This document shows positions 16,925 through 61,573 of a stretch of 64,000 bases of DNA, piece after piece. This stretch comes from Phycisphaeraceae bacterium (GTDB lineage Bacteria; Planctomycetota; Phycisphaerae; Phycisphaerales; UBA1924): NCBI GenBank assembly GCA_015200025.1, contig CP054186.1, forward strand, positions 2,838,643-2,902,642, in the 5' to 3' direction. The notes beneath the pieces were generated by a model. The model was not told the origin of the DNA. It worked only from the letters and a program-made list of their open reading frames with translations, and did no database searches. How positions within the stretch are numbered: position 1 is the stretch's first letter; the number at the start of each line of letters is the position of its first letter. The position numbers and the translations under genes were made by a program.

Positions 16925-17605
16925 GGGCCCTGACCATATCGGCCCGCCACGCCGATCGCCTCAAACACGCCCGACGACGCGGCGCGTTCATCGCGACGCC
17001 GATCCGGCCGGCGCTCTTGGGCGCACCCCGGGCGATCCGCGCCACGATCCTCCCTGCCGCATCCGGAGGTGTCGGGTGGGCTCCCGGGTCCTTCCCGCGT
17101 CCGACGTGTCGGAAGGGCCTCCACGCCCCGCCGTTCATAAATGCACGCCCCGTGCGCACGCCGGCACGACGGGCACGCCGTTCATCCGGATCATCTCGTG
17201 GCACGCGACCCGCGATGGATGGACCGAGGTCGGCCGGGACCCGCGATGGATCGTTTGTATTATGTTCGTGCATGCGGCGGGGTGAGAACCCACGAGGTCC
17301 GGCGTGGGGGGGGTTTGATCCGGCGGGGGGGAGACCCGTACAGTTCTGAGACGTTGCGGAGGTTGTGGCACGCCGCGGTGTGCGGCGTGCCGGTCTCCGG
17401 GTGCGAGGCGATCATGCTCCGAGCAGAGAATTATGCTCTCTGAGGGGTGCCAGTCGTGTGCCGGCCGGTGGTCGGTCGGCGCGGCGTGGGTCGTCCCGGT
17501 CCGTTCGGCGGGGGTGCCGATGGACTAGGGGCGGCGTGAGCCAGCCTTGGCCTTTGTCACGCCGGTCCCCCAATGGGCTCGGCGCGGCGGGGGCGATGGA
17601 CCCGG

Positions 17606-27564: not shown

Positions 27565-28296
27565 GTGGCCGGACATAACAAGTGGAGCAAAATCAAGCAC
27601 CGCAAGGCGGTCGTCGATAAGCGCCGGGGCAAGGTCTGGACCAAGGTGTCCAAGGCGATCATCGTGGCGGCCAGGCACGGGGGCCCCGACCCGGCCAGCA
27701 ACCTCGCCCTCCGATACGCCATCGACGAGGCCCGCTACGCCAACATGCCCCGCGACACCATCGAGCGGGCCATCAAGAAGGGCGCGGGCGGCGAGGACAC
27801 GAGCCAGTACGAGACCGTCCGCTACGAGGGCTACGCGCCCGGCGGCGTCGCCGTCGTCGTCGACGCGCTCACCGACAACCGCACCCGCACCGCCGCGGAC
27901 GTCCGCGGCGCCTTCAACGACCACGGCGGCAACCTCGGCACCGCCGGGTGCGTCGGCTACATGTTCCTCCCCCGCGGGCGAGTGCTCGTCGCCCCGGCGG
28001 GCGTGAGCGAGGACGCGATCATGGGCGTGGCCATCGAGGCCGGCGCCGCCGACATCCGCCCGCCCGAGGACGACGGCGACCCCTGGGAGGTCCTCACCGA
28101 TATCCCCGCCTTCCTCCGCGTCAAAGACGCCATCGAGAGCGCGGGGTTCACCATCGAAGAGGCCTCGCTCGCGATGGTGCCCGAGGCCACCAGCGCCGTC
28201 TCGGGCGAGACGGCCGACCGCGTCGGGGAGATCATCGAGGCCCTCGAAGAACTCGACGACGTCCAGAAGGTCTACACCAACGCGGACTTCCGGTAG
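27565..28296 (+). CDS. yebC: YebC/PmpR family DNA-binding transcriptional regulator
   Basis: AGHNKWSKIKHRKAVVDKRRGKVWTK and full-length similarity to the family support the call. The start is GTG. Confidence 0.9.
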   Translation: MAGHNKWSKIKHRKAVVDKRRGKVWTKVSKAIIVAARHGGPDPASNLALRYAIDEARYANMPRDTIERAIKKGAGGEDTSQYETVRYEGYAPGGVAVVVDALTDNRTRTAADVRGAFNDHGGNLGTAGCVGYMFLPRGRVLVAPAGVSEDAIMGVAIEAGAADIRPPEDDGDPWEVLTDIPAFLRVKDAIESAGFTIEEASLAMVPEATSAVSGETADRVGEIIEALEELDDVQKVYTNADFR

Positions 28297-28374
28297 CCCC
28301 CACGCGATCGAGCGGCAGTCCGACGATCGGCAGTCCGACGATCGGCGGGGCGGCGGAGCGGCGGGGCGAGGGAA

Positions 28375-28980
28375 CTACTGGGGGGGAGGCGGGGCGTCCT
28401 GCCAGGCGCCGTCTTCGCCCTTGCGGAGGATGCCCAGCTCGCCCAGGAATTCCCACGCGTCGCCGAATCTCCTCCCGACCTTGCCCGTGACGAGATTGAG
28501 GGCGCGGGTCGTGTCGTCGGGGATGATGGCGGTCACGTCGCGGTAGGTGTAGCCGATGACGCGCGGCCGAAGCTCGTGGTTGTAATAGACCACGACCCGC
28601 TCGTAGGGGGCCATGAGGTCGCGGTCGCGCATCACACCGACCGCCACGTCGTGGCCATCGTCCCGGGGCGGGACGGGGCGGTAATAGTTCTCCAGCTCGT
28701 CGTGGCCCAAGAACGGCCGATCCTCGCGCGTGGGCCGGAAGCCCATGCCCCTCAGGTGCGCCAGGGTCTGCTCGCGTGTCCATTCGGGGCGGATGCCCAG
28801 CGAGAGGAACCGGGGGCTGGTGAACGCGGGCCGCCCGCGGACCTGCTGGAACGTCCGCCGAGCCTCCCGGATCTGCTCCTTGAAGGGCGCCAGCTCGGCC
28901 TGCCTGGCCAGGTACTGGCTCACAGCCCCAAAGACCGCGACGGGCAGCAACGACAGCAGGATATAAAACGCGACGGGCAT
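28375..28980 (-). CDS. Membrane-anchored hypothetical protein, paralog 2 (candidate orphan immunity-like protein)
   Basis: It has an N-terminal TM segment (VAFYILLSLLPVAVFGAV). It shares the blocks FLSLGI.PEW.R.Q.L.HLR.MGF, LENYYR, APYE, YY.H..RP.VI.Y.YRD and LRKGEDGAW with the upstream gene. GGAG lies 8 nt upstream of the ATG. Confidence 0.6.
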   Translation of the reverse strand: MPVAFYILLSLLPVAVFGAVSQYLARQAELAPFKEQIREARRTFQQVRGRPAFTSPRFLSLGIRPEWTREQTLAHLRGMGFRPTREDRPFLGHDELENYYRPVPPRDDGHDVAVGVMRDRDLMAPYERVVVYYNHELRPRVIGYTYRDVTAIIPDDTTRALNLVTGKVGRRFGDAWEFLGELGILRKGEDGAWQDAPPPPQ

Positions 28981-29010
28981 GATGGGGACTCCGGTATGAT
29001 CTGAATCCGA

Positions 29011-29673
29011 TCACCAATCCGGGGCGTCGGATGATCCGGGCGACGGCGTGGTCTGCGTCGCGGTGGAGGGTGGGCGGGGCGGATCAACGTGCCGCCAGAC
29101 GCCCTGTTCGTCCTTTCGTTGGACGCCGACCTCGCCGAGGTACGAGGACCCACCGAAGAATTCGTGGGTGATCTCCCGAGTGATCAGGTTGTAACTCCGA
29201 GTCACGTCGATCGGGAAGATGCCCGAGAAGTCGCGGTAGTTGTACGATATGACCAAAGGCCGCTGGTCGTGGCCGTAGTAAACAAATAGAAATTCGTACG
29301 GCGCGAACACCTCTCGACTCGAGAGCCGACCGAAGGAGGGCGTATCACCACCCTCCGGATCGCGGACAGTACGGTAATAGTTCTCCAGGAGGTCGATGTT
29401 GACGAGCGGGCCGTGTCGGGGCGGGTAGTCGAAGCCCATCGATCTAAGGTGATCGAGCGCCTGGTCACGCGACCATTCGGGATGGATGCCGAGCGACAGG
29501 AAATCGGGGTCGTCGGGTCGGAATTCGCCGCGGGTCTCTTCGAACCGACGGAAGGCCCCGCGGATCTCCTCACGGTAGGGAGCGAGGTAGACCCATTTGA
29601 CGATACAACGCGAGAGAAGGGAGAAGGCCGCGAGGGCGGCGAGGATCGACAGGCTCAAGAAGATCTTCCGCAT
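29011..29673 (-). CDS. Membrane-anchored hypothetical protein, paralog 1 (candidate immunity-like protein)
   Basis: It has an N-terminal TM segment (IFLSLSILAALAAFSLL). By eye it is roughly 40-45% identical to 28375-28980. Sampled lines are lower in GC (29221-29280 60%, 29281-29340 55%). Confidence 0.6.
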   Translation of the reverse strand: MRKIFLSLSILAALAAFSLLSRCIVKWVYLAPYREEIRGAFRRFEETRGEFRPDDPDFLSLGIHPEWSRDQALDHLRSMGFDYPPRHGPLVNIDLLENYYRTVRDPEGGDTPSFGRLSSREVFAPYEFLFVYYGHDQRPLVISYNYRDFSGIFPIDVTRSYNLITREITHEFFGGSSYLGEVGVQRKDEQGVWRHVDPPRPPSTATQTTPSPGSSDAPDW

Positions 29674-29718
29674 GCTCGTTGATCCACGTCGATGGGTGAG
29701 GTGACAGCCCCACAGGAC

Positions 29719-31116
29719 TCAAGGTATGCAGGGCACCGAGTGAGGCGCAATCAAGTTCGGCGGTACCGGACCGCTCCGTAACGTCACCGCTGTTACGGTC
29801 CCTTGAATGCCGCCCCCGAAGCCGACGGCAATGCCGCCAACCCCGACAGGATTCCCGCTGGTTCGGTGCCATGAGCCCATCTCCGCCATCGGAAATCCAA
29901 TGGTGGCCGAGAGCCTTCGCAATGGTATAGGGACGCCGACGAACCCGGCCCTGGTCTGTGAACCCACATCGAACGGCCATTGGCACCGCACAGGCAAGTC
30001 CCGAAAGGGGATATCCGCTGCAACATAGCCGACAACGGCTCCGGCACCAAAGTCAAGCGAACCATCCCCCTCGAGCGAATAAAGACACCCGGTCGAGTCC
30101 AACGCCCACCCGACTCCATCGATCGAACCGAGCCCGGATAGCAACACACTCCAATACCGCCAGCTCATCTTCCCGTTCCACAGGCACCCCTGCCCCGAGC
30201 ACGGCGTGCCCTCCTCCGCGTACTCCGAATCCAAGCAGCTCGACGTGGACGCGTTCCACATCTGCGGCCTCTCCTCCACGAATACATCGCCCTCACAGAC
30301 CCGCCCATCCCACATCCCCAGCATGCGGATCAGCGTCTCGGGGGCCGCCGGCAATGGCACGGGGCACGACGGGGGCGACGGCTGGAACAGCGCCGCGACC
30401 GCCGCCTGCGTGTCCAGCCCGTCCGTTACCCCGTCGCCGTTCACGTCCGTCAGCACGGCCTCGAACCCTTCGGTCCCCTCGGCGAGGAAAACCTCCACCG
30501 CGTCGTCCTCGGTCACCCCGTCGTCCGCGTTCGCGTCGGCCAACGAGCCGATCCGGCAGGCGCCCTGGCACCCCGAGGTCAGCCCAGAACCCAGCGGGCT
30601 CAGCCACGATCCCGAGTACGCCCGCCAGACCACGCGGACATTGGACATCGTGTCCACGACAAGCGAGGCGACGGCCACATCGCTCTTCCCGTCCCCGTCG
30701 AGGTCCCGTGTCACTCGCAGGCCAGCGCCGAAGAGCGTGTCCTGCGGCCCGGCCACGGACGTGATCACCGCCCCCGTCGCGCCCGAGATCAGGTACACCC
30801 GGCCCCTCCCGCCCGCCGTCGGCTCCATCGGGGCCGAAACGATAAGGTCCGCCACCCCGTCGTCGTCCGCGTCTTCGATCGCGATCGCGCCGTTGCCGAA
30901 CAACCCGCCCGTGGCCGGCGGGTTCAGCAAGAGGATCACCGTCCCGTCGGCCGAGACCACATCGACATGCGCGACCTCTTCGGCCGAGATCGTGCTGTCC
31001 CAGATCGTCAGCGTCTCGATCTGATCGACCACCCCGTCGCCGTTGAAATCCGCGTACGTCATCCGCGGGTGCCACGGCTGGGCGAGCGAGAGCGAGCCGG
31101 CCGCGAGGAAGCCCAT
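29719..31116 (-). CDS. Secreted FG-GAP/dockerin-like repeat protein with an unassigned Cys/Trp/Gly-rich C-terminal domain; the true start is probably upstream (ATG 31243) but is out of frame by 1 nt
   Basis: Repeats FNGDGVVD, DADDDGVADLIVSAP, DLDGDGKSDVAV, NADDGVTEDD and DVNGDGVTDGLD are present. The C-terminal ~230 aa match no family I recognise. The listed Met sits in the middle of a signal-peptide h-region (see the findings). Confidence 0.65.
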   Translation of the reverse strand: MGFLAAGSLSLAQPWHPRMTYADFNGDGVVDQIETLTIWDSTISAEEVAHVDVVSADGTVILLLNPPATGGLFGNGAIAIEDADDDGVADLIVSAPMEPTAGGRGRVYLISGATGAVITSVAGPQDTLFGAGLRVTRDLDGDGKSDVAVASLVVDTMSNVRVVWRAYSGSWLSPLGSGLTSGCQGACRIGSLADANADDGVTEDDAVEVFLAEGTEGFEAVLTDVNGDGVTDGLDTQAAVAALFQPSPPSCPVPLPAAPETLIRMLGMWDGRVCEGDVFVEERPQMWNASTSSCLDSEYAEEGTPCSGQGCLWNGKMSWRYWSVLLSGLGSIDGVGWALDSTGCLYSLEGDGSLDFGAGAVVGYVAADIPFRDLPVRCQWPFDVGSQTRAGFVGVPIPLRRLSATIGFPMAEMGSWHRTSGNPVGVGGIAVGFGGGIQGTVTAVTLRSGPVPPNLIAPHSVPCIP

Positions 31117-31223
31117 GATCCCTCCGATCCGCGCCGAAGCCCGTGTGCGGGTGTCGGAACGTCGGCGGTCGCGTGTGAACGGGCCGATCAGCCGACCGGC
31201 GACATCAGAGCAGCGTGCGTGGC

Positions 31224-31234
31224 GGGGGGGGGGG
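31224..31234 (-). repeat. C11 homopolymer (G11 on the + strand) between the upstream ATG-ATG and the main ORF
   Basis: Read directly from the sequence: ggc-ggggggggggg-att on the + strand. Confidence 0.95.
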
Positions 31235-31267
31235 ATTCATCATGGCTGATACTCCAAAGGATTGTTG

Positions 31268-31296
31268 AAGATAACTTACTCGAATGATCCGGTCAA
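31268..31296 (-). promoter_or_regulatory. Sigma70-like promoter of the FG-GAP locus
   Basis: The minus strand reads TTGACC (31296-31291), a 17-nt spacer, then TATCTT (31273-31268). Downstream, GGAG lies 8 nt before ATG 31243. The promoter sits in the only AT-rich patch of the region. Confidence 0.55.
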
Positions 31297-31370
31297 GTGA
31301 AGAATGCGTGTGTTTCGATTGGCGATATTCTATAACCATAACCCGAAGCCGATTATGGCTCGGCGGCGGC

Positions 31371-32165
31371 TTACCGGCTGAGCCCGAGCGCCCCGGCGGC
31401 CCGGTCGAACGCGTCGGACGCGTCGGGCAAGGCGCGGAGGTCGATCACGGGGTAGCCCGTAAACCCGCGGGCGTGGAGGCACGCGAGGTAGGCGGCCGGG
31501 TCGAGCCGACCCAGCCCGAGCGGGCGTCGGACCGAGGCGTCGGCGTCGGCGAGCCGTGCGGCGGCGGGCGTGATCGTGAGCCGGGCCGCGTGCATCGCCG
31601 GGTCCAACCCCGCCAGCAGCAACCCCGCCGGGTCGATCCCCGCGGTGAGCGGCCCGACGGGCGGGTCGAACCCGCGCGAGAAATCAGCGACGGCTACGTC
31701 GGCACGGGCGGCCGCGTCCGCGATCGCCGCGCGGACCGCCGCCAGCGTCGCCTTCATCGGCTCGCCTTCCACCGACCCGTTCGCGGGCAGTTCCACACAC
31801 ACCACGCGCCCGCGAGGATCGCCCGCGAGCGTCGCCAGGTCGCCCGCCAGCGAGATCGCCGCCAACGCGGCCGCCAAGGCACGGTCCGCGTGCGCCGGCT
31901 CCACGAAATGCCCCGGCGGGATCCACAGGTCCAGCCCGGCGAACCCCAGCCCGTGCCGGCGGAGCACGGCGGCCAGATCACGCCTCGCCGATCGGTCCAG
32001 GTCCCGCGGGCGGGTGTCCGGGCTCGTCGCGTCGAGCTGGACGGCCCGGGGGCGGGCCGCGGGCGGTCGGGCGGCGGCCCACTCGATCAGGGCCCGCGTC
32101 CCGGCGGGTCGTGCGGCCTCATCGGGAAAGGTCAGGCCCGCGAGCGCGAGGGCGGGCGACAGCAT
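31371..32165 (-). CDS. Sugar phosphate isomerase/epimerase-like (xylose isomerase-type TIM barrel) protein
   Basis: Length and blocks such as GLGFAGLDLWIPPGHF fit the family weakly. The start is set at MLSPALALAG (32165); the track gives 32213. Confidence 0.45.
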   Translation of the reverse strand: MLSPALALAGLTFPDEAARPAGTRALIEWAAARPPAARPRAVQLDATSPDTRPRDLDRSARRDLAAVLRRHGLGFAGLDLWIPPGHFVEPAHADRALAAALAAISLAGDLATLAGDPRGRVVCVELPANGSVEGEPMKATLAAVRAAIADAAARADVAVADFSRGFDPPVGPLTAGIDPAGLLLAGLDPAMHAARLTITPAAARLADADASVRRPLGLGRLDPAAYLACLHARGFTGYPVIDLRALPDASDAFDRAAGALGLSR

Positions 32166-32211
32166 GGGCAGACCCGGAGTCACGGAGTGTTGTAGGGCAG
32201 TACGATCGGGC

Positions 32212-32769
32212 ATGTCTCGCGCCGGCCGGATCTTCGAAGGTGTGCACGCGGTATCCCTGGCGGTCTGGTTCGCCGCGCTGGCGGGGGCCGGCCTGGCCGC
32301 GGGCGTGGCGTTCCCGGCGATGAAAAGTCTCGACCCGGGCCTGCCGGGGTTCTCGGCGTACGACGGGCCTCACTGGCTCATCGCCGGCGGTCATGTCGGG
32401 CGTGGGGCTTTCTCCATCGCCGAGAAGATCGTGCTCGTCAGCGCGGCGGCGGCGGTCGTGAGCCTGGCGGCCGCGGAACGCGCCGCCCCGGCTGAACGCT
32501 GGCGCTCGCTCGCGCGGTGGGTGTTGATCCTGACGGCCGGGAGCCTCGCCGTCTGGCAAGGTCTGGTGCAATCGCCGCGCATGAACCGCGCCCTGGACAC
32601 GTATTGGTCCAGCGCCCGGGCCGGCATGAACGACGAAGCCGACCAGGCTCGGCGAGCGTTCGAAGCGATGCACCCCTCCTCGCGCGGGCTCATGACCCTC
32701 GCCGCCGCGTGCGTGCTCGGGGCTATCGCCGCCGGCGGGCTCGGGGCCTCCGGGCGGGCCGACGCGTGA
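32212..32769 (+). CDS. Small multi-pass membrane protein (DUF4149/TMEM205-like)
   Basis: The protein starts MSRAGRIFEGVHAVSLAVWFAALAGAG and has four hydrophobic segments. The upstream 640 nt of the track ORF run antisense to the TIM-barrel gene and were discarded. Confidence 0.45.
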   Translation: MSRAGRIFEGVHAVSLAVWFAALAGAGLAAGVAFPAMKSLDPGLPGFSAYDGPHWLIAGGHVGRGAFSIAEKIVLVSAAAAVVSLAAAERAAPAERWRSLARWVLILTAGSLAVWQGLVQSPRMNRALDTYWSSARAGMNDEADQARRAFEAMHPSSRGLMTLAAACVLGAIAAGGLGASGRADA

Positions 32770-33449
32770 GCACGGCGTCCCCCGAGCGCGTGACGGCCTC
32801 TCAGAAAGCGCGGGCGGCCCGGGTCCTCGCCGCCCTCGACGAGCATTGGGGGCACGCTCGCTGCGAGCTGAACTACACCACCCCCTACGAACTCCTCGCC
32901 GCCACGATCCTCTCGGCGCAGTCCACCGACGCGGGCGTGAACAAGGCCACGCCGGCCCTCTTCGCCCGCTTCCCCACGCCGGCCCACTACGCCTACGCGA
33001 GCCCCGCGGAGATCGAACCCTTCATCCGGAAGATCGGGCTGTTCCGGAGCAAGGCCCGCGCCCTCCACGAATCGATGAAGGCCCTGGTCGAGCGGTTCGG
33101 TGGCGAGGTCCCCCGGCGGATGGAGGACCTCCTCACGCTCCGGGGCGTGGCCCGCAAAACCGCCAACGTCGTCCTAGGCAACGCCTTCGGGATCAACGAG
33201 GGCATCCCCGTCGATACGCACGTCCAACGCGTCTCGGCCCGCCTCGGGCTGGTCCGCCCCGGCGCGACCCCCGCGGCGATCGAAAAACGCCTGATGGCCC
33301 TGTTCCCCCGCGAGCGGTGGTGCGACCTCTCGCACATGCTCATCTGGCACGGCCGGTACGCCTGCCCCGCCCGGGGCGGCGGCCACACCCACCCCATCTG
33401 CCGGGAGTTCGGGAAGGGGTGCGGGGGAAGCGTGCCCGAGAGGAGTTGA
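32766..33449 (+). CDS. nth: Endonuclease III
   Basis: [26 protein letters not shown], the HhH block [35 protein letters not shown] and a C-terminal Cys cluster are present. The GTG start overlaps the preceding stop (GTGA). Confidence 0.9.
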
Positions 33450-33504
33450 ACCTCTAACCTCTGCCTTCGGAGGGCAGCGCTCTATCCAATTGAGCTACGG
33501 GCAC
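33431..33504 (-). tRNA. tRNA-Arg (CCG)
   Basis: The reverse complement is GTGCCCGTAGCTCAATTGGATAGAGCGCTGCCCTCCGAAGGCAGAGGTTAGAGGTTCAACTCCTCTCGGGCACG. It folds as a cloverleaf with the anticodon loop CTCCGAA. Confidence 0.9.
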
Positions 33505-38775: not shown

Positions 38776-39606
38776 TCAGCCCCGCCGCCCCGCGTCCCGC
38801 AGGGCGAGGATCTCGCGCATCTCCTCCGCCAGTTCCGCCAGCCTCCGGTCGGACGTGTCCAAGTTCTGCCTGCGGCGGTGCTCGATCTCCTGCACCTCCT
38901 GGTAGTTGTTGATGATCGCCCCCACGATCAGGTTGATCAGCAGGAACGTCGCGATCACGATCCACAGCACGTGGAAACCCGTCACGATCCACGCGTGCGG
39001 CCCGTAAAACGCCGCGGCCTCGTACCGCAGGTCCGTCCAGTTGTCCCCCGTCAAGACGCGGAACAGCGTGAAGCACGCCTCGTGGATCGTGGCGTACTCC
39101 TCGCGCAGCGGGTTGCCCGGATCCTGGGAGCCGAACACCTTCACCCCGATCGTCGCGAACACGTAGAAGCTCAGCGCCGCCAGCGCCGTGATGTGCTTCA
39201 TGCTCGCCGTCGAGCGGATGAGCACGTCCACGATCATCCGCAGCTCGGGCAGGGCCTTGACGAGCCTCAGGATCCGCAGCACGCGCAGGATCCGAACGAC
39301 CGGCGCCACCCCCTGCCACGCGGGGATGAACGCCGCCGTCACGATCACCACGTCGAACACGTTCCACCCGTCGCGGAGGTACGCCCGCGCCGAACGCGCC
39401 GACAGGAACCGCAGCACGATCTCCGTCGTGAACAGCGCCACACACGCCCGCTCGGCGTGGACGATCCACCCCGCGTCCGTGTACGTCGAGGCGCCGATCA
39501 ACGCCGCGTTGATCAAAATCACCGCCACCGACGCCGCGTTGAACCGCGGGTCCTCCGTCAATCGCGAAAGCCGGGTGCTCGGGGCGTGGGTCGTCTCCGT
39601 CGTCAT
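38776..39606 (-). CDS. Single-domain 6-TM voltage-gated cation channel (BacNav/NaChBac superfamily) with a Ca-channel-like pore motif
   Basis: The S4 segment is VVRILRVLRILRLVKAL. The pore sequence is FTLFRVLTGDNWTDL, and S6 is IVIATFLLINLIVGAIINN. The start is set at MTTETTH (39606) because the track's N-terminal 53 codons are a translated C-rich repeat. Confidence 0.8.
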   Translation of the reverse strand: MTTETTHAPSTRLSRLTEDPRFNAASVAVILINAALIGASTYTDAGWIVHAERACVALFTTEIVLRFLSARSARAYLRDGWNVFDVVIVTAAFIPAWQGVAPVVRILRVLRILRLVKALPELRMIVDVLIRSTASMKHITALAALSFYVFATIGVKVFGSQDPGNPLREEYATIHEACFTLFRVLTGDNWTDLRYEAAAFYGPHAWIVTGFHVLWIVIATFLLINLIVGAIINNYQEVQEIEHRRRQNLDTSDRRLAELAEEMREILALRDAGRRG

Positions 39607-39737
39607 TCGGCGGGCTCCGGGTGAGATGGATCGGGGGTGGTGAAAAGGGGTGGGATGGGTGGGGTGTGGGTGGGTAGGGAGTGGGTGGGGGGGGTGGGGA
39701 GGTGGGGGTTTCGGAAGCGGCCCGAGCGTAGCCAACC

Positions 39738-39777
39738 GCCCAAAAACACAAACGCCCGGGCACATCGGCCCGGGCGT
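39738..39777 (-). terminator. Rho-independent terminator of tRNA-Ala
   Basis: acgcccgggc (39752-39761) pairs with gcccgggcgt (39768-39777). The minus-strand RNA continues UUGUGUUUUUGGG. Confidence 0.65.
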
Positions 39778-42583: not shown

Positions 42584-43324
42584 TCAGCGTTCCTTCGCCC
42601 GGCCCGTCGCCCCCGCCACGCTCAGACACCGCTCCACAAGCCCCGACACCTCCGTCTCGCGGGGCAGCACCTCGTCCGCCCCCGCCTGCTTGAACGCCCC
42701 GGCCTGCTTCACATGCCCAGGCTCCATCAGCACGATCACCCGCGCCCGGTCGCCCACCGCGCCCGACGAGACCCGCGCGCACACCCCCTCCGACCCCGCC
42801 ACCCGAGACGCCACCACCACCACCCCGCCCCGCATCTGCGCCGCCGCGTACCCCGCGTCAAACAACGTGCCCGCCCACGACACCCGCAGCCTCGGGTCCC
42901 GCGACAACGCACCCGCCAGACGTTCCGCCGCCGGCGCCTCGTCGATCACCAGCACCCGCACGCCCCCCGGCTCCAACGCCGCCGTCGACATCCCGTGCGC
43001 ACGCATGAAACGGATCAACTCGTCCCGAGGGATCCGCCGGAACCTCGACCCTGGCACCCGAAACCCCGTCAACTTCCCGTTGTCGAAACACCGGATGATC
43101 GTCTGCTGAGACACCCGACAGACCGCCGCGGCCTCGCCCGTCGTGAACACCCGCTTCTCACCCAACCCATCAGCCTCGCCCGACCCGCCGTCCCCACGAT
43201 CCGCCGGCGAAGGAGGAGACGCGTGGGGAGGAGGTGGTGGTGGAGGTGGAGGTGGAGGTGGGGGGGGTGGTGGGGGCATGGGGCGCGGTGTTGGATCGAC
43301 GCGCCGGGCACCCGACTTCACCAA
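42584..43324 (-). CDS. Excisionase-family (MerR-like) HTH protein fused to a pseudo-receiver domain, with an N-terminal poly-Pro tract
   Basis: The HTH_17-like segment is FTTGEAAAVCRVSQQTIIRCFDNGKLTGFRVPGSRFRRIPRDELIRFM. It is followed by VRVLVIDE ... VVVVASRV, where no phospho-acceptor Asp is seen. The start may be the internal Met at 43279. Confidence 0.6.
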   Translation of the reverse strand: MVKSGARRVDPTPRPMPPPPPPPPPPPPPPPPPHASPPSPADRGDGGSGEADGLGEKRVFTTGEAAAVCRVSQQTIIRCFDNGKLTGFRVPGSRFRRIPRDELIRFMRAHGMSTAALEPGGVRVLVIDEAPAAERLAGALSRDPRLRVSWAGTLFDAGYAAAQMRGGVVVVASRVAGSEGVCARVSSGAVGDRARVIVLMEPGHVKQAGAFKQAGADEVLPRETEVSGLVERCLSVAGATGRAKER

Positions 43325-57436: not shown

Positions 57437-58615
57437 TCAGTCCAGCCAGTCCTTGGCCCTGAGCCGCTGGGGCACGTACGTCTCGGTGACGTACGAGATG
57501 TCCTTCGTGATGAGCGACTCGACCTCCATCTTGAAGCCGTTCTTCAGCATGAGGTCGATCTCCTTCTGCCAGCCCTTGTGCTCGACGAACCACGGGTAGG
57601 CGGCGATCTCCTTGGCCCTCTTGGTGTCGTTGTCGTTGAGGGCGATCTGCACGTCGTCGGAGAGCCCGCACTCGGCGTAGTCCTTGGAGCGGACGCCGAC
57701 GAACTTGGCCTCGGGGATGGCCAGCCGGTTGCTCTCGAAGGCCAGGGAGATCGAGCCCTGCTTGATGACGCTGAAGATGTAGTGCCCCCAGGGGTCGCAA
57801 TCGAGCAGGCAGTAGATGGGGAGCCCCAGCTCGGTGTTGAGGCGTTGCAGGAGCCGGCGGACACCTCGCGAAGGCTGCCCCCCGCCCTCGGTCAGGATGC
57901 AGTTGTGCTTCTGCCAGAACTTGTCCTCGTTGAACCGCCCCCAGACCGTGTCCTTCTCGACGTGGAGGACGAACTTCGCGTCGCACTTCTTGAACTGGAT
58001 CACGTCGGGCTCGACGATGCTGGGGATGGCGTAGCCCCCCGAGCCCATCCGCCGGCAGTCGATCTCGTCCCCCGTGTCGACGATCGTGATGTTCCCGATC
58101 ATCGTCCCCTTCTTTTTCGCGAAGATGTGCAGCTCCTCGCGCAGCGCCCCGAGCGAGACCTCCAGGTCCTCGAGCACCGCGTCGGACTCGTCCTGGTCCG
58201 CGAAGGTTTTCTCCTTGGTCCCCGCCACCGTGTGCAGGCCCTTGTAGAACATGCCGCGGAGGCTCAGCGTCTTCTCCGCCTCGATCAGGTCCTTGATCGA
58301 CGAGGAGTGCAGGCACGTCTGCATGAACTGCTTGGCCTGGCTCAGGTTGAACAGCTCTCGCTCCGACGACGCGTCGCCCATCCGCAGCACCCGCCGCTTG
58401 CGGTCCCAGATCGTGTTGCTCTTGGCCCGGATCGGGATCTCGATCTTGGGCTCGCGCATCGAGAGCGCGCTCGTCGAGATTCGGTCCGCCAGCTCCACGA
58501 TCTTCCCGCGCGTCCGCGCGTCCCGCTCCTTGATCCGCGCCGTCATCCCCCCACCCGCCCCACCCGCCCCACCCGCCCCACTCCCCCCGCCACTCCCCGA
58601 CGTCTTCTTCGCCAT
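57437..58615 (-). CDS. top6A: DNA topoisomerase VI subunit A (Spo11-like)
   Basis: LRGMFY provides the catalytic Tyr context. The Toprim region shows VLHVEKDTVW and LLDCDPWGHYI. A Gly-rich N-terminal tail is present. Confidence 0.9.
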   Translation of the reverse strand: MAKKTSGSGGGSGAGGAGGAGGGMTARIKERDARTRGKIVELADRISTSALSMREPKIEIPIRAKSNTIWDRKRRVLRMGDASSERELFNLSQAKQFMQTCLHSSSIKDLIEAEKTLSLRGMFYKGLHTVAGTKEKTFADQDESDAVLEDLEVSLGALREELHIFAKKKGTMIGNITIVDTGDEIDCRRMGSGGYAIPSIVEPDVIQFKKCDAKFVLHVEKDTVWGRFNEDKFWQKHNCILTEGGGQPSRGVRRLLQRLNTELGLPIYCLLDCDPWGHYIFSVIKQGSISLAFESNRLAIPEAKFVGVRSKDYAECGLSDDVQIALNDNDTKRAKEIAAYPWFVEHKGWQKEIDLMLKNGFKMEVESLITKDISYVTETYVPQRLRAKDWLD

Positions 58616-60946: not shown

Positions 60947-61573
60947 TCACGCCCGCGTCACCCACGCCAGCCACTCCGCGTTCCCCGCCCCCTTCCCGCC
61001 GCCCAAGACCGGCGACTTCGTCAGCCCCAGCACCCTCGCCCCCCACGACCCCATCCGCCCGCACACCTCCCGCGCGATCCGTTCCGCCTCCTCCTCACCC
61101 AGCACCCCGCCCCGCGGCACCACCACCCCGACCTCCCTCGCCTCGTAGTGCGGCTTGATCAGCGTCACCACCCCCACCCCCACCCCCACCCCCACCCCCA
61201 TCCCCTCGCCCTCCACCGAGCCCTCCGCGGCCGAGAGCCACCGAAGCGCCGCGGGAATCACCAGACGCTGAGGCGTCCAGCTCATGTCCGCCACCACCAG
61301 CGCCACGCCGCCCGCCGGCGGCGTGGCGTGCAGGGCGTTGGTCCGCTCCATCACCACGACCCTGGGATCGTTCCGCAGCGTCCAGGCCAGTTGCCCGTAC
61401 GCCGTGTCCACCGCGTACACCCTCGCCGCCCCGTGTTTGAGCAGGCAATCCGTGAATCCCCCCGTGCTGCACCCAAGGTCGGCGCACACCAGCCCCGCGG
61501 GGTTGATCCCCAACGCCCCAAGCCCGTGCTCGAGTTTCAACCCGCCCCGGCTGGCGTACGCCCCGCCGCTCAT
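60947..61573 (-). CDS. tlyA: TlyA-family rRNA 2'-O-methyltransferase lacking the N-terminal S4 domain
   Basis: ASRGGLKLEHGL ... CADLGCSTGGFTDCLLKHGAARVYAVDTAYGQLAWTLRNDPRVVVMERTN matches the family. It contains a (GV)5 insert. Confidence 0.8.
   Translation of the reverse strand: MSGGAYASRGGLKLEHGLGALGINPAGLVCADLGCSTGGFTDCLLKHGAARVYAVDTAYGQLAWTLRNDPRVVVMERTNALHATPPAGGVALVVADMSWTPQRLVIPAALRWLSAAEGSVEGEGMGVGVGVGVGVVTLIKPHYEAREVGVVVPRGGVLGEEEAERIAREVCGRMGSWGARVLGLTKSPVLGGGKGAGNAEWLAWVTRA
61170..61199 (-). repeat. Perfect hexanucleotide microsatellite (ACCCCC)5 on the + strand, (GGGGGT)5 on the coding strand
   Basis: Read directly from the sequence. It encodes GVGVGVGVGV inside tlyA. Confidence 0.95.

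Follow-up and report, generated by a model that had tools for sequence, protein, structure and literature searches.

The window, the whole 64,000-nt stretch of Phycisphaeraceae bacterium contig CP054186.1 analysed here, carries on its minus strand an ORF for an FG-GAP repeat protein of 465 aa counted from Met 31116 (29719..31116; Pfam FG-GAP, E 1.4e-11). After a 45-nt gap comes a 220-aa gene on the same strand (29011..29673) with an N-terminal hydrophobic segment and no Pfam family, which probably shares an operon with the FG-GAP gene, and then a 201-aa gene (28375..28980, minus strand), a second downstream paralog that is 44% identical to the 220-aa one. In the Phycisphaerales MAG UBA2396, which holds the closest ortholog, a fused two-module homolog of this downstream pair comes after the FG-GAP ortholog. 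AlphaFold2, run on an alignment of three sequences, returned a mean pLDDT of 33.

Reading the minus strand toward Met 31116, we located in order a sigma-70-like promoter (31268..31296: TTGACC at 31296-31291, a 17-nt spacer, TATCTT at 31273-31268), a Shine-Dalgarno GGAG (31252..31255) lying 8 nt ahead of an upstream ATG-ATG start (31243-31238) whose next codon is AAT, and a C11 homopolymer (31224..31234; G11 on the plus strand), a simple-sequence tract that sets the frame. The promoter was also recovered in a scan of 30900-31500, where it was the only site against 0.1 expected from shuffles, and it sits in an intergenic stretch of 47% GC within a window of 70.6% GC. As sequenced, the frame opened by the upstream ATG (31205..31243) runs for 12 codons, MMNPPPPPRTLL, and ends at TGA 31207-31205, 17 nt after the C run. 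The original prediction had named these elements, and every coordinate in it proved right, as did the 12-codon frame.

Counted from the upstream ATG, which lies 127 nt from Met 31116, the main ORF is in the +1 frame. Ahead of that Met its frame stays open for 40 codons (31117..31236, minus strand), which would supply an Arg-rich n-region together with the start of the h-region (…RTRASARIGGI), until it is closed by TGA 31239-31237; between this stop and Met 31116 there is no ATG, GTG or TTG, in agreement with the earlier claim that no alternative in-frame start exists there. Met 31116 has a second Shine-Dalgarno of its own, GGAGG (31121..31125, minus strand), at a 4-nt spacer. By itself the open upstream frame is weak evidence, because 41 stop-free codons at 70.6% GC have a chance of about 0.47 when calculated from base composition. 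The GC content of the 40-codon leader is 72.5%, versus 47% upstream of the ATG, and is flat by codon position (0.70/0.72/0.75); the first 40 codons of other genes span 0.65-0.90, so codon-position GC cannot decide whether the leader is translated.

When tract length was varied in simulation, C10 or C13 fused the upstream ATG to the main ORF and added 42 residues, reproducing both the fusion that had been claimed for the loss of one C and the residues quoted for it. With C8, C11 or C14, a short upstream ORF ended 88 nt before Met 31116, and with C9 or C12 an upstream ORF of 17-18 codons ended 71 nt before it. Fused, short and alternative upstream-ORF states cycle by 3 in the simulation, in the window and UBA2396 alike.

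Started at Met 31116, the protein begins with MGFLAAGSLSLA and then QPW, giving a 12-residue hydrophobic stub that is uncharged and lacks an n-region. In the fused form a basic n-region is followed by the h-region IGGIMGFLAAGSLSL and a predicted cleavage between SLA and QP; by feature counts only, this form shows a net charge of +7, a 16-residue uncharged stretch, S/A at -3/-1 and 54 aa to the cleavage site. A signal peptide of 54 residues is unusually long, and Pfam TAT_signal gave no match at E<=1. Calling the gene from Met 31116 (465 aa) probably cuts off part of the signal peptide. That the listed Met lies within the h-region, as originally proposed, fits the family, but the proposal had overlooked that this Met is preceded by a GGAGG of its own and that the Met is conserved in three lineages.

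The family comprises four lineages in the databases searched, the orthologs of the window's FG-GAP ORF being P0002/P0121 (57% identical), P0003 (45%) and the most distant, P0149, which serves as outgroup (locus L022). Searching with P0149 brought up no further relatives, and searching with the C-terminal domain alone brought up just a fragment of P0002, whose contigs begin inside the gene, without the leader. The QP cleavage context follows a hydrophobic segment ending in small residues in all four lineages, and the outgroup has a 21-aa signal peptide, MLKTIFPIVLTLCAGTASALA, with cleavage before QP; together these point to a secreted family. In the outgroup, GGGAG-N6-ATG is in frame with the gene and no repeat lies between the start and the h-region, while at the equivalent place UBA2396 has AAGGAG-N7-ATG and a third ingroup lineage, L003, has AAGGAG-N7-ACG. 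Judged from this in-frame, Shine-Dalgarno-equipped ATG of the outgroup, the upstream ATG 31243 is probably the ancestral start of the FG-GAP gene.

The relatives also differ in the signal peptides that their starts provide. The called start of the outgroup yields the 21 residues already mentioned and ATG(-33) of UBA2396, the NCBI/ENA call that gives the 491-aa protein P0121, yields 33, each with a charged n-region. L003 has no repeat; its sole canonical start, ATG 523, leaves 16 uncharged residues before the cleavage site, and a hypothetical 31-aa signal peptide with a charged n-region would arise only if the Shine-Dalgarno-equipped ACG initiates. The window, UBA2396 and L003 share the internal Met and the conserved context around it, G[AG]TCATGG, both of which are absent from the outgroup. 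In a DNA alignment of the four leaders this context was the sole conserved part, and BLASTP of the window leader peptide against the UBA2396 leader produced no alignment.

In UBA2396, the upstream start is ATG-AAC, followed directly by a (CGTTGCC) array of 7 perfect units and 1 imperfect unit, stronger than any other tandem repeat in 7.4 kb (TRF score 110), and again a +1 offset separates the main ORF from the upstream ATG. The window and UBA2396 therefore each contain exactly one frame-shifting repeat, of different kinds, at homologous positions. Between two UBA2396-type sequences that are 99.9% identical (3 SNPs in 3200 nt), the repeat holds the only indel and 2 of the 3 SNPs fall in the leader. 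The heptamer count is 5 in one contig and 8 in the other; the 8-unit count recurs in two records of different extent, a UBA MAG and an ERZ assembly, and the 5-unit value may be a k-mer collapse. Since the 5-unit value equals the minimal k=31 de Bruijn path (Logan) for any longer period-7 tract, 34 nt, and 55 nt is likewise the minimal path for k=55, the 5 versus 8 difference is unsafe evidence and we rejected it as proof of hypermutability. The case carries a general caution, as repeat counts from k-mer assemblies may be artefacts that mimic strain polymorphism.

At C11, the tract exceeds every other homopolymer in the window, among which five runs of 8 come next. G/C runs of at least 6, 7 and 8 number 62, 20 and 6, a drop of about 3.2-fold per extra base, and extrapolating this empirical decay gives roughly 0.1-0.3 expected G/C runs of at least 11 per 64 kb. 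The tract alone is thus just mildly unusual, with several such runs expected by chance across the genome, and its position is the standout feature. An independent Logan contig, built directly from SRR9305632 reads, is 100% identical to window positions 27738-33485 (5748 nt) and also has C11, so that both of the two sequences of this single strain agree; an error-free k-mer contig of 5.7 kb suggests that the reads were accurate. Among further samples of the window species, a search over the tract found just this same Logan contig and a 1477-bp metagenome contig that ends before the leader.

The explanation we favour, if only tentatively, is a slipped-strand repeat switch belonging to a known kind, situated where the 5′ end of the gene encodes the signal peptide and sequenced in its uncoupled state. 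On this explanation, C11 would be a hypermutable tract in the 5′ coding end, within the signal-peptide n-region, of the gene for a Sec-exported FG-GAP protein whose original start would be the promoter-proximal, Shine-Dalgarno-equipped ATG 31243. One-base replication slippage in the tract would move this ATG in and out of frame. With C10 or C13, translation would yield a 507/508-aa precursor with the basic n-region, h-region and cleavage site described above. With C11, ribosomes starting at 31243 would stop after 12 codons and protein could come only from Met 31116 by way of its own GGAGG, with a 12-residue N-terminus that has no positive charge and is probably poorly exported. In that event, mutation at the locus would reversibly switch a secreted or surface protein on and off, or else adjust how much of it is made, and the sequence would have captured the uncoupled state. 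Variation of tract length within the population, better export of the long form and the usefulness of switching to the cell are all things that we infer.

Several features agree with what is expected of SSR phase-variable loci. The tract is longer than the homopolymer length of ~8-9 nt taken as slippage-prone for such loci, as the several perfect units of the UBA2396 array also would be, one-unit changes alter the frame in the simulation, and the product has the marks of an environment-exposed protein (FG-GAP repeats, and a hydrophobic segment before QP in all four lineages). Slipped-strand phase variation had been proposed in the original prediction as one of three unranked readings, and it gains from the in-frame Shine-Dalgarno-equipped ATG of the outgroup and from the frame-shifting heptamer of UBA2396, but the two sequences of the window strain both have C11. 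As a separate matter, Met 31116 combines a strong Shine-Dalgarno of its own with a conserved context, which counts against a switch and means that the uncoupled arrangement may be the normal working state; equally, the C11 state as sequenced need not be null. Leader peptides without conservation, a leader without codon periodicity, the unusual length of a 54-residue signal peptide and the several runs of this size expected by chance across the genome are further observations that count against a switch.

Among surface-protein genes, slipped-strand phase variation in the signal-peptide-coding 5′ end is known from the opa genes of Neisseria, with CTCTT repeats, and the same type occurs with CT repeats in outer-membrane protein genes of Helicobacter pylori. 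Mycobacterium tuberculosis glpK contains a 7C tract subject to reversible homopolymer frameshift; the window tract is likewise a G/C homopolymer in the coding region of a GC-rich genome and a possible site of reversible frameshift, but the tract of glpK is internal to an enzyme gene, with loss of function as the result, whereas the one described here would fall in a dispensable n-region directly after the start codon. Listeria monocytogenes inlA has a 5′ poly(A) tract (PMC2831843), and homopolymeric tracts at 5′ gene ends are established devices of reversible inactivation (PMC2831843; criteria in PMC3711429). In common with opa, the H. pylori genes and inlA, the present locus has a frame-shifting repeat a few codons after the start of an exported-protein gene, one-unit changes that shift the frame of the start, and different repeat types at the same position in related genes. 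It departs from them in belonging to an environmental planctomycete and not a host-associated pathogen, in being a predicted switch, and in having a second Shine-Dalgarno-equipped internal start, so that the uncoupled state may still give some protein.

The rival that survives best, which we hold to be unlikely, is a fixed two-cistron arrangement, in which the ancestral start has become a short upstream ORF in this clade, the protein is normally made from the conserved internal Met by way of GGAGG, and the C tract is a mutational relic or at most tunes ribosome traffic along the leader, with no on/off role. The GGAGG 4 nt before Met 31116 fits this well, as do the conservation of that Met and of G[AG]TCATGG in the window, UBA2396 and L003 together with their absence from the outgroup, the unconserved leader peptides, and the finding that all three ingroup lineages are uncoupled by different lesions (the C tract, the heptamer count, and ACG in place of ATG in L003). 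Termination-reinitiation after an upstream ORF is one of the GeneTack frame-transition classes (PMC3711429), and UBA2396 has its classic layout, with an upstream ORF that stops 4 nt before the in-frame ATG(-33) and its good 33-aa signal peptide or, in the other repeat phase, ends in a TGATG overlap with ATG(-17). In the window, however, 88 nt separate the end of the upstream ORF from Met 31116, which leaves no coupling geometry, and the 12 uncharged residues from that Met are much shorter than the other signal peptides of the family. A perfect heptamer array of 8 units in one lineage and a C11 run in another, both at one position, are also hard to accept as inert relics, given that such tracts decay or change length quickly.

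A wider form of the switch must be counted a long shot, namely that the repeat is a three-position selector of the N-terminus, choosing between exported and retained or poorly exported isoforms, and that a mutable-repeat leader has been kept across Phycisphaerales lineages by turnover of the repeat, in free-living bacteria from which contingency loci are not known. Whatever the repeat phase of the UBA2396 allele, ribosomes still reach the main ORF (by fusion, at ATG(-33) or at ATG(-17)), and the phases of the window give either the 54-aa signal peptide or the 12-aa stub from the Shine-Dalgarno-equipped internal Met.

It is improbable that the true tract is C10 and that an ordinary ORF starting at 31243 was broken by a sequencing or assembly error, although long G/C homopolymers are the classic place for residual indel errors and C10 would restore exactly the outgroup architecture of a Shine-Dalgarno-equipped ATG in frame with a signal peptide. 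A homopolymer error had been among the original explanations, and it is made less likely by C11 in the identical, read-based Logan contig and by the remaining G/C runs of 7-8 in the window, which lie in intact, uninterrupted ORFs. No fused 507-aa version of the protein was found in a collection of 5.8 billion proteins, and UBA2396 is put out of frame by a heptamer repeat, which a homopolymer error cannot explain.

We give a similarly small chance to recoding, that is, to a real C11 at which some transcripts or ribosomes slip and so yield the precursor constitutively, whether by RNA polymerase slippage or because tRNA-Pro shifts +1 on CCC-C with the aid of poly-proline pausing; this reading is compatible with the switch and does not exclude it. 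The main ORF is in the required +1 frame, the run supplies repeated CCC-C contexts, which are +1-prone sites for tRNA-Pro (PMC4519876), and C11 stands at the frame junction with more than the 8-9 nt characteristic of programmed transcriptional slippage, for which homopolymers of at least 8 are the typical sites (PMC3711429). In Citrobacter rodentium an interrupted tssM is rescued by transcriptional frameshift (PMC4256274), and the break in the present gene likewise coincides with a homopolymer of 8 nt or more, beyond which the frame is intact and conserved. The transcriptional slippage sites documented in these papers are, however, A or T runs (PMC3711429, PMC4256274), as in the tssM type, whereas the window has a C run at a site that is unconserved among orthologs: UBA2396 has a heptamer there, a repeat is missing from L003, and in the outgroup the start is already in frame. 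In contrast to prfB-type +1 frameshifting, the stimulators (internal Shine-Dalgarno a few nt upstream, slow or stop codon in the A site, RNA structure) are absent as well, the leader being unstructured, the stop codon coming 17 nt past the run and the initiation Shine-Dalgarno, ~18 nt upstream of the run, being the sole one nearby.

Least probable is the original suggestion of a poly-proline leader, in which translation of the upstream ORF MMNPPPPPRTLL would pause when EF-P activity is low or proline is short and would thereby control the ORF that follows, in the manner of mgtP: its five consecutive Pro codons in a 12-codon ORF with a strong Shine-Dalgarno do recall the short Pro-codon upstream ORF of the Salmonella mgtCBR leader and other known proline-codon leader ORFs controlling downstream genes (PMC3641672; EF-P dependence in PMC5299641), but the prolines are a by-product of the C homopolymer, of which another frame would still leave a run, they are unconserved in UBA2396, whose upstream ORF MNSRCPLPVARCPL… contains no consecutive prolines, and the window lacks the alternative RNA hairpins and the attenuator of the mgtP type. 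Folding of the leader RNA did not improve on shuffled sequences (z +0.99), for which reason a riboswitch or attenuator was dropped as a candidate; a scan of the leader region found no terminator-like site, and no Rfam family matched 30800-31500 at E<=1.

For the protein itself, the probable truncation of the signal peptide in the 465-aa call means that localisation predictions would be wrong for it and for its orthologs. If the tract does switch, as in the reading we prefer, it would add a free-living, high-GC planctomycete to the bacteria with contingency loci. To our knowledge, such switches are documented almost entirely in host-associated pathogens, and a search of the literature turned up no account of phase variation in the Planctomycetes. 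Switching of the tract would also mean that mutability has been conserved while the repeat sequence itself turned over, with C11 in one species and a heptamer array occupying the same codon position in another.

Inspection of the minus strand recovered every element listed by the original prediction: a sigma-70-like promoter (TTGACC at 31296-31291, 17 nt, TATCTT at 31273-31268), GGAG (31255-31252) followed after 8 nt by ATG-ATG (31243-31238) and AAT, a run of 11 C (31234-31224), and a TGA (31207-31205) that ends the upstream frame MMNPPPPPRTLL. This was the sole promoter-like site in a consensus scan of 30900-31500, with 0.1 expected from shuffles. The main ORF (29719-31116, minus strand, 465 aa; product P0001) matches Pfam FG-GAP (E 1.4e-11) and also FG-GAP_3. 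Its frame is shut upstream by a TGA (31239-31237) overlapping the second ATG, and a scan agreed with the earlier claim that no ATG, GTG or TTG lies in that frame between this stop and Met 31116. When tract length was varied in simulation, C10 or C13 fused ATG 31243 to the main ORF, adding exactly the 42 residues previously proposed for removal of one C or gain of two; C8, C11 and C14 gave a short upstream ORF (uORF) ending 88 nt before Met 31116, and C9 and C12 a uORF of 17-18 codons ending 71 nt before it. The uORF stop overlaps a third-frame ATG (TGATG, 31203-31207, minus strand), probably by chance, which opens just 5 codons (MSPVG, stop at 31190-31188). Approximately 40-60 nt upstream of the -35 hexamer, in 47% GC intergenic DNA, an inverted repeat, CCATAA-N11-TTATGG followed by TTATAG (31336-31358, minus strand), could be a putative regulator binding site.

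The C11 tract is the longest homopolymer in the window (70.6% GC), followed by five runs of 8. The window's G/C runs number 62 of at least 6, 20 of at least 7 and 6 of at least 8, and this roughly 3.2-fold drop per extra base predicts about 0.1-0.3 runs of at least 11 per 64 kb; by itself, the tract is only mildly unusual. The 41 stop-free codons upstream of Met 31116, with a chance of ~0.47 at window composition by our own calculation, are weak evidence. What is unexpected by chance is the position of the run, 9 nt past an ATG equipped with a Shine-Dalgarno (SD) motif, where a related species has another repeat. Elsewhere in the window, a ~90-nt G-rich array of GGGT/GGGGT units with quadruplex-like spacing (39619-39709, including a G8 at 39687-39694) sits where the 5′ ends of a minus-strand ORF (38776-39765) and a plus-strand ORF beginning at 39650 overlap. 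G8 and G7 runs spaced 11 nt apart (17306-17331), outside high-GC3 ORFs and ~240 nt upstream of a gene whose start is at 17573, are a possible second length-variable tract in a regulatory region. Three near-perfect repeats whose unit lengths are divisible by 3, namely GGAGGT x7 (43225-43276), CCCCACCCG x3.7 (58546-58598) and CCACCC x6.3 (61168-61205), would keep the reading frame, if coding.

To find relatives of P0001, we searched 5.8 billion proteins twice with a word index, ran a third such search from the outgroup protein P0149, and scanned 1.84 billion representatives exhaustively with HMMER. Across these collections, full-length similarity was found in four lineages only: P0001; P0002/P0121, at 57% identity to it, encoded in the Phycisphaerales MAG UBA2396 and in matching contigs from metagenomes; P0003, at 45% identity, known from a single short Logan contig (L003); and the more distant P0149. 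All four share a cleavage context before QP (SLA, AMA, ALG and ALA), so the family is predicted to be exported. In the outgroup, four contigs agree completely across a 600-nt comparison that took in 500 nt of upstream DNA plus the gene's opening 100 nt. Here GGGAG-N6-ATG is itself in frame with the signal peptide MLKTIFPIVLTLCAGTASALA, which precedes QPPQP, and the interval from start to h-region is free of repeats; judging from these sequences, translation ancestrally probably began at an SD-equipped ATG lying shortly before the h-region. A G-rich stretch, GGGCGGGGGGGCTGAAGGGGGGTGGTGGGGCGGGTGGG (L022:1300-1350), lies about 150-200 nt upstream of the outgroup start codon.

In UBA2396 (contigs L004 and L011, which agree), AAGGAG-N7-ATG-AAC-TCA is directly followed by seven perfect CGTTGCC units and one CGTTGCT, an array that outscores every other tandem repeat in 7.4 kb by a wide margin (TRF score 110, 100% matches), and the main ORF lies in the +1 frame relative to the upstream ATG, open back to a TGA overlapping ATG-A. 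Since the window reads ATG-ATG-AAT before its tract, in both genomes a frame-shifting repeat begins near codon 4 of the ancestral frame. L003, a single short contig, lacks a frame-shifting repeat and apparently reads AAGGAG-N7-ACG in the frame of the ORF, with the conserved Met 15 codons further on. Just upstream of that site is a perfect 12-nt direct repeat (L003:441-463; two copies of CCCGGGCAGAC followed by A or C), and an ATG at 438 opens a frame with the same +1 relation to the main ORF.

Comparison of another UBA2396-type contig (L002, Logan, SRR19052718) with L004 revealed 3 SNPs in 3200 nt, 2 of them in the roughly 100-nt leader, and a sole indel of 21 nt in the heptamer array (5 vs 8 units). 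Taking this as direct proof of hypermutability is unsafe: once a perfect period-7 stretch exceeds k+6, a de Bruijn graph represents it as a cycle, through which the shortest path preserves length modulo 7, and that path is 34 nt for k=31 (Logan), exactly the L002 tract, and 55 nt for k=55 (SPAdes-style), exactly the L004 and L011 tract. Tract polymorphism and the reading phase of L002 are therefore unproven. The 5-unit value may simply mean 5 or more, and the 8-unit array, found in two records whose contigs differ in length (the UBA MAG and an ERZ assembly), is probably real. Contigs from three metagenome assemblies of three other samples (L017, L018 and L019) carry UBA2396 sequence at 100% identity, and their first positions (L004:3876-3891), at most 15 nt apart, all lie within the FG-GAP gene near codons 293-297 of P0002. 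This shared break is not accounted for by any repeat in L004, and suggests that strain-level variation or rearrangement, covering the leader and the 5′ two-thirds of the gene, stops sharply there.

Absent from the original prediction was a strong SD motif of Met 31116 itself, GGAGG at 31125-31121 with a 4-nt spacer, which doubles as codons for the h-region Gly-Gly. Such motifs are not ubiquitous in the window, as a crude survey found SD-like sequences at just ~6 of 26 putative gene starts. The N-terminus from Met 31116 consists of 12 uncharged residues, MGFLAAGSLSLA, before QPW, and the C11 state need not be null if, as could be the case, a product is made from this start. Downstream of the FG-GAP gene lie two paralogs encoding 220 and 201 aa (28375-29673), with gaps of 45 and then 30 nt; they are 44% identical, and each has an N-terminal hydrophobic segment. 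Both carry an FLSLGI-PEW-type motif and have no Pfam family. One fused 350-aa two-module homolog follows the UBA2396 ortholog (L004:4438-5490), and none follows the outgroup FG-GAP gene.

In the mechanism we propose, the ancestral gene would have started at the SD-equipped ATG, and the window lineage and UBA2396 would each have gained slippage-prone repeats in the stretch for the tolerant signal-peptide n-region. By feature counts, C10 or C13 would yield the complete signal peptide originally predicted for the fusion, made up of a basic n-region of net charge +7, an h-region of 16 uncharged residues and SLA before QP; in C11 the strong start would be uncoupled, and only the internal Met, with its own SD and a 12-residue stub, would remain. 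Phase variation, as first suggested, thus gains from the ancestral SD-ATG start and the second frame-shifting repeat in UBA2396, but not from tract-length polymorphism, both available sequences of the window tract being C11 and the 5 vs 8 comparison unsafe.

The main alternative, which we consider rather unlikely, is that the uncoupled layout is a fixed, working state in the clade. The upstream site is uncoupled in all three ingroup lineages, by a different lesion in each, and the internal Met with its context G[AG]TCATGG is kept in all three and absent from the outgroup. Moreover, the UBA2396 uORF stops 4 nt before an in-frame ATG opening a good 33-aa signal peptide, and in the other phase its stop overlaps another in-frame ATG (TGATG). 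It seems improbable that the locus selects among alternative N-termini as a three-position device kept up across Phycisphaerales through repeat turnover. Programmed frameshifting may allow some read-through into the main frame, as CCC-C contexts have an inherent tendency to +1 shifts (PMC4519876) and transcription can slip on long homopolymers (PMC3711429, PMC4256274), but the four lineages do not share the site at which a shift would occur, and nothing near the run looks like a stimulator. A sequencing or assembly error is disfavoured: direct assembly of run SRR9305632 by Logan gave a contig matching 27738-33485 at 100% identity, C11 included, and an error-free 5.7-kb k-mer contig points to accurate reads, although the two sequences may share one read set. 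The window's remaining G/C runs of 7-8 fall inside uninterrupted high-GC3 ORFs, and the fused 507-aa protein was not found in the 5.8-billion-protein collection. A poly-proline stalling leader peptide regulating the main ORF is not supported, since the UBA2396 uORF lacks consecutive prolines, shuffled sequence folds at least as well as the leader RNA (z +0.99), and no terminator-like site or Rfam match was found at the leader.

Codon-position GC is flat in the leader (0.70/0.72/0.75) vs 0.62/0.45/0.95 in the first 40 codons after Met 31116, but this is not decisive for coding, as position-3 GC in the first 40 codons of other putative genes ranges from 0.65 to 0.90. Leader GC is 72.5% vs 47% in intergenic DNA upstream of the ATG, and the window and UBA2396 leader peptides share no similarity.

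A 1477-bp MEGAHIT contig (L021, metagenome ERZ27309503) matches 28259-29735 at 100% identity, reaching 16 nt into the FG-GAP gene from its 3′ end; that sample thus contained the sequenced strain or a near-clone, and could supply natural tract-length data. A full-text literature search, judged from titles and abstracts, returned no simple-sequence-repeat phase-variable locus in Planctomycetes. The arrangement resembles in function classic contingency loci with repeats in the signal-peptide-coding 5′ end of surface protein genes, as well as 5′ homopolymer inactivation devices of the inlA type (PMC2831843), and combines a slippery tract, frame-setting placement and a predicted exported product. 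Overall, we tentatively read the C11 tract, at a little under even chances, as a slipped-strand switch, or a volume control, for FG-GAP protein export, sequenced here in its uncoupled state.
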